From: a virus | DNA: 64,000 bases | Virus record (IMG/VR): IMGVR_UViG_3300045988_096557 | Reading direction: 5' to 3' (one strand) | Shown: one piece after another, positions 49,557-50,966 of the stretch | Layout: every line of letters starts with the position of its first letter | How positions within the stretch are numbered: position 1 is the stretch's first letter | The notes under the pieces: model-generated | What the model saw: only the letters and a program-made list of their open reading frames with translations | Told to the model about the DNA's origin: nothing | Databases searched by the model: none | Made by a program: the position numbers and the translations under genes

Positions 49557-50966
49557 ATGACTAATGCTCAAATTATTTGGAAATACTTTAAAGGCAAAGG
49601 TTTTAGTGATTGCGGAATTGCCGGTTTAATGGGTAATCTTTATGCCGAAAGTGGACTTAATTCTATTAACTTATAGAACACCTATGAAAAAAAATTAAAA
49701 ATGACCGACGCAGGATATACCTCCGCAGTTGATGATGGAAGGTATAAAAACTTTGTAAAAGATGGAGCGGGATATGGATTGGCTCAATGGACATTTTGGA
49801 GTAGAAAACAAAATTTGCTTTAGTTCTGTCAAAGTCGAGGCAAATCCATTGGAGATTTAAATACTCAATTAGATTTTTTATATTAGGAGTTAATTACAAG
49901 TTTTTCTAGTTTAGTTAAAATTTTGATTTCTGCCACTTCTGTCACAGAAGCCTCTACCGCGGTATTACTCTAGTTTGAAAGACCTTCAGACTAGAGTTTT
50001 TCTATGCAACAAAAGAGGGCTAATTATGGTCAATAGTATTATAATAAATTTGCTAACATTTCAAATGTAATTGAAGGAGGTAATAAAATGAAATATAGCG
50101 ATAGCAATAAACCACTTCAATGTATGATGACAAATAGCACTTGCTATAAACAAACACGCACCATGCAAGTTAAAGGAATCTTATGGCATAGTACTGGTGC
50201 AAATAATCCTAATTTAAAAAGATATGTATAGCCAAGCGATAATGATCCTAACTACACCAGTTTAATAAATAAATTAGGAAAAAATACTAGCAAGAATGAC
50301 TGGAATCATATATCTGTTCAAGCTGGATTAAACTGTTGGATTGGTAAATTGGCTGATGGAACAGTAACAACAGTATAGACAATGCCATGGAATTATCGTC
50401 CTTGGGGATGCGGTTCTGGGTCTAAAGGTTCTTGTAATAATGGATGGATTCAGTTTGAAATTTGCGAAGATGGATTAAATGATGCAAATTATTTTAACAA
50501 AATTTATGAAGAGGCTTGTCAAATTACTGCTTATTTATGTAAAATGTATAACATAAATCCATTGGGAACCACTACTTTAAATGGTATCACCGTTCCGACT
50601 ATTTTATGTCATGCTGATAGTCACAAGCTAGGATTAGGATCTAATCATGCAGATGTAAACCATTGGTTTCCAAAATTTGGAAAAAGCATGGAAACCGCAA
50701 GAACAGATGTTTATAATTTAATGTCAAATATCTAGGAGGATGATGAAGATATGACTGACGAGAAATTCGCTGAACTTATGAATACTTGGCTTACTAATAA
50801 AGCTAATGAAAAAGAAACTTGGGGCACCGATAATCTTGAATGGGCTAAAGCGAATGGGATTATGGCTGGAGACAGTGCTGGAAGAATGATGCCAAATAAA
50901 TTCTGCACTAGATTAGAAACTGTAACTATGTTAAGAAGATTGGCTGAAAAGCTAGGTTTAAAATGA
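49557..50966 (+). CDS. Modular endolysin: lysozyme-like domain, Amidase_2-like domain and C-terminal cell-wall-binding-like domain in one frame under TAG=sense (9 in-frame TAG)
   Basis: Frame 0 has no TAA/TGA for 470 codons; GIAGLMGNLYAESG..GYGLAQWT (lysozyme-like); GILWHSTG..LCHADSH (amidase-like); internal RBS+ATG at 50088 and 50751. Confidence 0.5.

Follow-up and report, generated by a model that had tools for sequence, protein, structure and literature searches.

A three-module endolysin gene with nine in-frame TAG codons and two conserved candidate internal start sites in a recoded gut phage

The window analysed here, a stretch of 64,000 nucleotides (nt) from a virus (IMG/VR record IMGVR_UViG_3300045988_096557), contains a lysis gene with nine TAG codons in its reading frame. 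The observations as a whole are best explained by one endolysin gene of three modules, a lysozyme, an amidase and a presumed cell-wall-binding tail, with TAG read as glutamine (Gln) and with two conserved internal sites, each made up of a Shine-Dalgarno sequence (SD) and an ATG, that probably act as internal translation starts; this explanation is held with high confidence. Comparison with relatives shows that the three modules had been fused before TAG was recoded and that the TAG codons at the two junctions are recent substitutions of sense codons at variable positions. The coordinates of the features are collected in Table 1.

One gene with three modules

The endolysin frame has no in-frame TAA or TGA before its terminal TGA, and a frame of 470 codons free of TAA and TGA would be expected by chance with a probability of about 1e-11 at 36% GC (own calculation). 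It contains exactly nine in-frame TAG codons, at 49674, 49821, 49884, 49971, 49992, 50034, 50229, 50376 and 50733 (codons 40, 89, 110, 139, 146, 160, 225, 274 and 393), in agreement with an earlier sequence-only reading that had described one frame with nine TAGs ahead of a single TGA. That reading divided the frame at two of the TAGs into a lysozyme-like, an amidase-like and a wall-binding-like segment. The domain calls hold in the Pfam comparison, whereas the TAG borders are not domain borders; these lie in linkers at residues 168-176 and 392-398.

The Phage_lysozyme2 profile (PF18013) matches residues 3-165 over profile positions 2-140 of 140 (E = 4e-35, 121.5 bits against a gathering cut-off of 28.2), and Amidase_2 (PF01510) matches residues 202-353 (E = 1.7e-11, 45.0 bits against a cut-off of 26). 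The SLH profile (PF00395) matches residues 422-454 of the tail with E = 8e-4 and 19.8 bits, just under the Pfam cut-off of 20.8. This match is precomputed on many homologues of the endolysin, and the SLH resemblance is therefore regarded as real but marginal in the window sequence. The tail has a single SLH motif in 71 residues and does not reach the canonical three tandem motifs of S-layer proteins such as Sap. It may work in the manner of an SLH anchor, perhaps as an oligomer, yet it is no canonical SLH domain. Weak matches to the SLH region of Sap were found (PDB 6bt4 and 3pyw), and the tail alone gave no match to a PHROG family.

The structure was predicted with AlphaFold2 from an alignment of 38 sequences for a protein 99% identical to the window lysin (P0002), in preference to P0001, which carries E31K. 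The model has a mean predicted local distance difference test score (pLDDT) of 76.8 and three folded modules, with three helices predicted in the tail. The pLDDT falls below 50 in two stretches, residues 168-176 immediately ahead of Met178 and residues 392-398 immediately ahead of Met399, which marks both as real linkers. A helix predicted at residues 148-166 is the last helix of the lysozyme domain and spans TAG160. Because the lysozyme profile match also runs through this codon, TAG160 lies inside the domain and not between genes.

Foldseek matched module 1 of the model to phi29 gp13 (PDB 3csr, TMt 0.67) and module 2 to the catalytic domains of PlyP100, AmiA, PlyL, PlyG and LytA (E 3e-6 to 1e-4, TMt 0.6-0.7). 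Residue E31 is aligned with the Glu of 'SES' in gp13, in the motif 'GN..(A/S)ES', and is invariant in the relatives; it is presumably catalytic, a role assumed here from gp13. In the amidase, H211, E301, H352 and D366 are invariant in alignments of 18 and 38 sequences. The stretch ('qfeice') around E301, the presumed catalytic Glu, aligns with a PlyL stretch that differs between the entries 1yb0 and 2ar3 (an E90A mutant according to its Foldseek title). H211, H352 and D366 are taken to be zinc ligands, an assumption from the AmiE-type His-His-Asp spacing rather than from a solved structure. These conserved residues bear out the catalytic assignment of both modules. P0001, the representative of a cluster of 215 member sequences and 99% identical to the window lysin, has Lys at the presumed catalytic Glu31; this may reflect a naturally occurring variant whose first module is inactive, or else an error of sequencing.

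More than 7900 database homologues were found with the translation in which TAG is replaced by Q, and each of the 120 best is a single protein of 442-487 amino acids (aa) with both catalytic domains. Since the gene callers behind these records may themselves have used genetic code 15, the DNA of relatives was examined. The frame is free of TAG in 33 of the 56 distinct IMG/VR relatives (51-98% identity) and is continuous across the matched modules where the contig covers them; the remaining relatives have 1, 2, 4-5, 10-12 or 16 TAGs in frame. A crude test of the code used by each relative, based on coverage by open reading frames (ORFs) under both codes and on counts of TAG stops, was noisy because antisense ORFs intrude, and isolate bacterial genomes and a cultured phage served as the standard-code references.

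In the isolate Oscillospiraceae bacterium 50-58 the modules lie in one stop-free ORF on a 368-kb scaffold, with 60% identity over residues 3-467. Two further isolates (L092 and L093) have one stop-free ORF with an extra SH3-like insert before the tail, and Flintibacter muris DSM 110149 (L097) has a stop-free ORF on a contig that covers only residue 135 onward. A metagenome-assembled genome (MAG; L095) also has the three modules together in a single stop-free ORF. The cultured Faecalibacterium phage FP_Lagaffe, which uses the standard code, encodes a 528-aa endolysin (AUV56383.1) with the same lysozyme module, an in-frame 'GGAGG-N7-ATG' and a further catalytic region, and a holin is found nearby. 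Among cultured phages it offers the nearest homologue of module 1 and linker 1, with 51% identity over residues 3-211. Similarity to the window amidase stops at residue 211, where the record annotates an N-acetylmuramoyl-L-alanine amidase domain, and the end of the protein appears to consist of SPOR- and SH3-like parts instead of the SLH-like tail, as judged by reading the sequence. The lysin of Dulem virus 33, also with the standard code, comprises the amidase and the tail and reads I-Q-E-D-D-D-M, with CAG at the equivalent of TAG393.

The junction codons differ among close relatives. A relative with 78% identity (L090) has Glu at both junction positions, while one with 85% identity (L089) has TAG at both. 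In an alignment of 33 relatives K, R, N, T or V stands at codon 160 and mostly E at codon 393. The junction TAGs are confined to a sub-clade at least 85% identical to the window.

Relatives with shuffled modules were also observed (L098; L029, L045-L051 and L059 from IMG/VR; L083 and L096), one of which, L083, has 16 TAGs. The order in Butyrivibrio sp. M55 (L098) is amidase, lysozyme2, SH3. Larger versions of 780-880 aa have an added N-terminal 'FKSTEFDCHGSGCCS' module and SH3-type tails that replace the SLH-like tail. In L081 (IMG/VR 3300006144_000079) the lysin frame is broken after 128 codons while the similarity runs to the end, possible causes being a frameshift, decay to a pseudogene or misassembly.

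Two origins had been proposed for the frame in the sequence-only reading, a multidomain endolysin with internal starts and, as in its title, a set of TAG-terminated genes fused by the recoding. In the latter case three ancestral lysis genes would share one frame only through reassignment of TAG, and would be three cistrons under the standard code. Such a history fits the location of TAG160 and TAG393, 51 and 15 nt upstream of a strong SD and ATG, and the intergenic appearance of about 50037-50087, and two-module (amidase and tail) and differently ordered versions do exist, from which it follows that the modules have been shuffled in evolution. It is contradicted by the sense codons at both junctions and the uninterrupted ORF in standard-code genomes and TAG-free relatives, by the two Glu codons in the 78%-identical relative, and by the position of TAG160 within the lysozyme profile match and a predicted helix. 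The first two segments also hold five and two further internal TAGs, so that neither could be made under standard decoding. Instead of the three separate genes considered earlier for standard-code homologues a single ORF was found, and because these relatives carry the same parts as one gene, the recoding did not fuse them; fusion by recoding is thus refuted and retains next to no probability. The multidomain endolysin with internal starts is supported by the single-ORF homologues and by the conserved SD and ATG sites. Another interpretation of this single gene would be that its product is carried in the tail of the virion and hydrolyses peptidoglycan during infection, in place of acting as the endolysin. 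PF18013 is named 'phage tail lysozyme', and the lysozyme domain also matches tape-measure and tail PHROGs and phi29 gp13, a tail enzyme. This role is nevertheless very unlikely, given that the protein is matched best by endolysin PHROGs (phrog_20388, 3e-65; phrog_15001, 1e-34), that a conserved small protein with two transmembrane (TM) segments and an overlapping stop and start follows the gene in all lineages examined, and that the FP_Lagaffe homologue is annotated as an endolysin beside a holin. The neighbours of the gene are PhoH, RNase H and gyrase genes; the tail-fibre-type genes identified in the window are confined to 21.8-26 kb, about 23 kb away, and the product of the gene has a wall-binding-type tail and no tail-assembly domains.

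TAG codons and their decoding

TAG-free relatives have Gln at four of the nine TAG codons; at codons 40, 146, 225 and 274 it is found in 24, 20, 30 and 28 of 33 aligned relatives (61-91%). The window encodes a suppressor tRNA with the anticodon CTA, and positions 2-6 of its acceptor stem (GCGGA) and the G before CCA are the same as in the tRNA-Gln(TTG) of the phage, which suggests that the tRNA(CTA) is charged with Gln. Comparison of the frame with its relatives shows that all nine TAGs are sense codons, which are concluded to be read as Gln. With this decoding the translation across the junctions is ...ANYGQQYYNK... and ...LMSNIQEDDEDMTDEK.... Metaproteomic proof that TAG is decoded as Gln is so far known only for crAss-like phages (PMC9523058).

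The lysin is the gene with the most TAGs in the window. TAG makes up 9 of its 23 Gln-type codons (39%), compared with 32 of 356 (9%) in 36 other long ORFs (Fisher p = 2e-4). No TAG is present in 24 of 36 other long plus-strand ORFs, including the PhoH, RNase H, GyrB and GyrA genes that flank the lysin. Across one syntenic phage lineage the TAG count of the lysin rises from 0 to 12. The absence of TAG from the tail is uninformative, as the window tail has no Gln codon of any kind and 0 of 7 Gln codons are TAG in the tails of L001-type relatives, which is about the chance expectation (own calculation).

Other TAG-containing ORFs were also found in the window. Four consecutive ORFs at 21824-26025 (+), with 2-5 TAGs each, form the TAG-rich set of the window together with the lysin. 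Three of them (21824-22390, 22411-23472 and 24688-26025) resemble tail-fibre genes, each encoding an Mtd_N (major tropism determinant N-terminal) domain; the fourth, at 23490-24662, gave no match to a Pfam family. The highest TAG density among the long ORFs is that of an ORF at 58201-59034 (+), with 277 codons and 8 in-frame TAGs. Its product combines a TM segment at the N-terminus and a long region of coiled-coil type with no more than the first approximately 33 positions of a GIY-YIG nuclease domain.

The window contains 30 tRNA genes in addition to the tRNA(CTA) and a transfer-messenger RNA (tmRNA), in an array at 10178-28613 (+). The tmRNA is located at 16751-17066 and has the tag DNDYFENYLAA. 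In a phage that reassigns a stop codon it may be relevant to the rescue of ribosomes that stall or terminate at TAG.

Candidate internal translation starts

Each of the two internal ATGs has an SD of its own, at 50088 as well as at 50751, as the sequence-only reading had stated. The SD of site 1 lies 7 nt before its ATG and that of site 2 lies 10 nt before its ATG; the first G of the latter is the last base of TAG393 (50733-50735). The energy of the duplex between SD and anti-SD is -13.5 kcal/mol at site 1 and -10.7 kcal/mol at site 2, compared with a median of -7.8 kcal/mol for 36 other gene starts in the window.

Both sites are conserved. At site 1 the SD and ATG are kept in 27 of 27 distinct relatives, with GGAG(G) before the ATG, although the residues encoded by the SD vary (EGG, KEE, TGE, KGG, RGD, KGS and others) and the motif is found in different reading registers. 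At site 2 all 18 distinct relatives with this tail keep an unchanged GGAGGA at an unchanged distance from the start, and the preceding codon is GAG, ATG or TAG. In one relative (L025) the ATG of site 2 is replaced by GTG, which is still a start codon. The mean SD energy over all relatives is -11.2 kcal/mol at both sites and -1.7 kcal/mol at 337 other in-frame ATGs, of which only 1.2% reach -8 kcal/mol. Synonymous codon choice in the SD windows is shifted to GAG (72% against 31% elsewhere) and GGA (64% against 29%), with p of about 1e-7. Two-module lysins consisting of the amidase and the tail, found in Acutalibacter, Colidextribacter and others, begin exactly at the M/V-K-Y of site 1, which indicates that site 1 is the retained start of an older two-module lysin.

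Internal starts are predicted in about half of the endolysins of phages of Gram-positive bacteria, either between catalytic domains or before the binding domain (PMC9430671), and in phage 2638A both isoforms are needed for timely lysis (PMC12203907). The two SD and ATG sites of the window lysin resemble such known internal starts, and both kinds would thereby be present in one gene, one between the catalytic domains and one before the binding domain. Up to three nested products would result: the full-length protein of about 52 kDa, the amidase with the tail of about 33 kDa and the tail alone of about 8 kDa. A text search of the available literature gave no endolysin with two internal starts or three isoforms, which is no proof that none exists.

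Several points weigh against the use of these sites and against parts of the overall interpretation. The compared sequences are phylogenetically related, so that the p-values of the codon bias overstate independence. Acidic and Gly-rich linkers are inherently purine-rich, the spacing of 10-11 nt at site 2 is on the long side, and the published predictor also flags 15% of portal genes (PMC9430671), so that an SD and ATG by themselves yield false positives. For the modules, the SLH score lies under the Pfam threshold with one motif where the canonical domain has three, and the presumed holin matches no Pfam or PHROG family. The gene could thus be a single multidomain endolysin whose internal SDs and ATGs are unused, being leftovers of an ancient fusion and by-products of purine-rich Gly/Glu/Asp linkers. 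The coincidence of site 1 with the start of the two-module homologues is compatible with this, as are the GAN codons that are unavoidable in acidic linkers, the false-positive rate of the prediction approach and the long spacing at site 2. A by-product of linker composition does not, however, account for a fixed SD distance in every relative despite changing residues and register, for a synonymous bias to GAG and GGA restricted to these windows, or for the exchange of Met for a GTG-encoded Val that keeps a start codon in L025. Both SDs also pair more strongly with the anti-SD than is typical of gene starts in the window, and few other in-frame ATGs of these genes have a strong SD. Unused sites are therefore considered unlikely, though they keep an appreciable share of the probability, and internal starts within a single three-module endolysin gene are preferred.

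Lysis cassette, gating and related systems

The lysis cassette consists of three genes between two terminator-like hairpins, inside an otherwise TAG-free block of replication genes (Table 1). The first gene, encoding NAGPA and SPOR domains, is found only in the sub-clade of the window, and its product may be an extra lysis factor that cleaves wall polymers. In this sub-clade the start of the full-length lysin has no SD (+2.0 kcal/mol), whereas strong SDs are found there in most other relatives. The lack of an SD together with the position of the start 2 nt after the upstream TAA indicates that translation of the lysin is probably coupled to that of the NAGPA-SPOR gene. The third gene, for the small two-TM protein, has a homologue directly after the lysin in phage relatives, in prophages and in Dulem virus 33. 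No convincing sigma-70-type promoter was found between the first hairpin and the cassette; transcription may therefore need read-through of the terminator or a phage-specific promoter.

Table 1. Features of the endolysin gene, its cassette and the suppressor tRNA in the window
Feature	Position	Strand	Description
Endolysin gene	49557..50966	+	469 sense codons and TGA (50964-50966); nine in-frame TAGs read as Gln
Module 1, Phage_lysozyme2 (phi29 gp13-like) glycosidase	49563..50051	+	residues 3-165; TAG 40, 89, 110, 139, 146, 160
Linker 1 and internal start site 1 (candidate)	50058..50090	+	residues 168-177; SD AAGGAGGT 50074-50081; ATG 50088-50090 (Met178)
Module 2, Amidase_2 N-acetylmuramoyl-L-alanine amidase	50088..50729	+	residues 178-391; TAG 225, 274
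Linker 2 and internal start site 2 (candidate)	50730..50753	+	residues 392-398 (I-TAG-E-D-D-E-D); SD GGAGGA 50735-50740; ATG 50751-50753 (Met399)
Module 3, SLH-like tail	50751..50963	+	71 residues, one SLH-like motif, no TAG; presumed cell-wall-binding
NAGPA (phosphodiester glycosidase) and SPOR gene	48700..49554	+	2 TAGs; Pfam; TAA 2 nt before lysin ATG
Small two-TM protein, presumed holin	50963..51298	+	111 aa, no TAG; ATG overlaps lysin TGA (ATGA)
Terminator-like hairpin upstream of cassette	48650..48677	+	12-bp stem, then T-run
Terminator-like hairpin downstream of cassette	51300..51338	+	17-bp stem, then T-run
Suppressor tRNA, anticodon CTA (reads TAG)	27477..27552	+	ARAGORN; Rfam tRNA 59.8 bits

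A perfect hairpin of 13 bp followed by a T-run was observed inside the lysin gene at 49967-49997 (+), with TAG139 and TAG146 in its arms (free energy -19.1 kcal/mol, z = -5.1). As an internal terminator or regulatory element it was rejected: beyond the nearest relatives the hairpin is not kept, being weak or missing in L008, L089 and L090, for which reason it is probably incidental.

Near-identical contigs of about 148 kb are found in human gut metagenomes, two of them binned with MAGs of Eubacterium and Oscillospiraceae. The carrier is best explained as a large (about 148 kb) gut phage of Oscillospiraceae-type Clostridia in which TAG is read as Gln. A megablast search with 40000-60000 of the window gave no match among deposited phages.

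Six of the TAGs are located in module 1, two in module 2 and one in linker 2, with none in the tail or in the holin-like gene. As the positions of the codons show, neither catalytic module can be made in full while TAG acts as a stop. The earlier claim that lysin production needs TAG suppression is in this respect correct; that the catalytic products depend on the decoding of TAG follows directly from the sequence. In the proposed mechanism active lysin would appear only once the tRNA(CTA) outcompetes release factor 1, and the yield of full-length protein, for which nine successive TAGs must be read through, would depend steeply on the efficiency of suppression. A preference of lysis genes for recoded stops, and the hypothesis that recoding gates lysis, have already been published (bioRxiv 10.1101/2021.08.26.457843), and the enrichment of TAG in the lysin fits this hypothesis. 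The TAGs may accordingly be hypothesised to have a timing role; against this it must be held that the enrichment could also reflect mutational or expression-level effects.

A more elaborate scheme combines three nested products with two controls. The TAG-free tail of 8 kDa and the holin-like gene would be expressed under the standard code, while the catalytic isoforms would need decoding of TAG as Gln, and free tails would join the full-length and amidase isoforms to complete a wall-binding unit of several motifs. This scheme is speculative and is given a low probability; if true, it would describe an endolysin with two conserved internal starts that is gated by a change of the genetic code and not only by the holin.

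The closest parallel in domain organisation is Ply2638A of Staphylococcus phage 2638A, which consists of an M23 peptidase, Amidase_2 and SH3b and has an internal start between its catalytic domains (PMC12203907). It belongs to a group with two catalytic domains and one binding domain that also includes Ms6 LysA, Pollywog and Javan488 (PMC9430671). The window lysin shares with Ply2638A the presence of two catalytic domains and a C-terminal binding module in one gene, and the SD and ATG in the linker would likewise give an isoform of amidase and binding module. It differs in having a gp13-like lysozyme in place of M23 and an SLH-like tail in place of SH3b, a second conserved internal start site before the binding module, and nine TAG-encoded Gln residues; its isoforms are predicted ones. 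In CTP1L, CD27L and CS74L of Clostridium phages and Lys170 of an Enterococcus phage an internal start yields the binding domain as a separate product as well, which forms a complex with the complete enzyme (PMC4777826, PMC9430671). A conserved SD and start in the linker before the C-terminal binding module is common to these enzymes and the window lysin, and so are Firmicute hosts, and a free binding-domain product from the window lysin is plausible. Those enzymes have one catalytic domain, and the window lysin, unlike them, has a fold with a single SLH-like motif.

TAG-rich late and lysis genes are a property of gut phages with code 15 (Borges et al., bioRxiv 10.1101/2021.08.26.457843; phAss-1 group, PMC10607447). 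The window has in common with them a tRNA(CTA), TAGs at conserved Gln positions, TAG-rich genes of lysis and tail-fibre type and TAG-free replication neighbours. Its lysis cassette differs in location, being inside the block of replication genes and not beside structural genes. The phAss-1 group is alike in kind.

The locus thus belongs both to the multidomain Gram-positive endolysins, probably those with internal starts, and to the code 15 phages with TAG-rich lysis genes, and it is mildly unusual only in that it may give three isoforms and has a tail with a single SLH-like motif. It is an example of a published pattern and not of a new principle, and leaves current concepts unchanged. For the annotation of recoded phages it provides a worked example, in which TAGs near a strong internal ribosome-binding site can mimic gene boundaries and standard-code relatives reveal a single ancient multidomain gene. 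The locus also allows a concrete test of the published proposal that lysis is gated by the recoding of a stop codon. If used, the two conserved internal starts would extend the theme of endolysin isoforms from two products to three.

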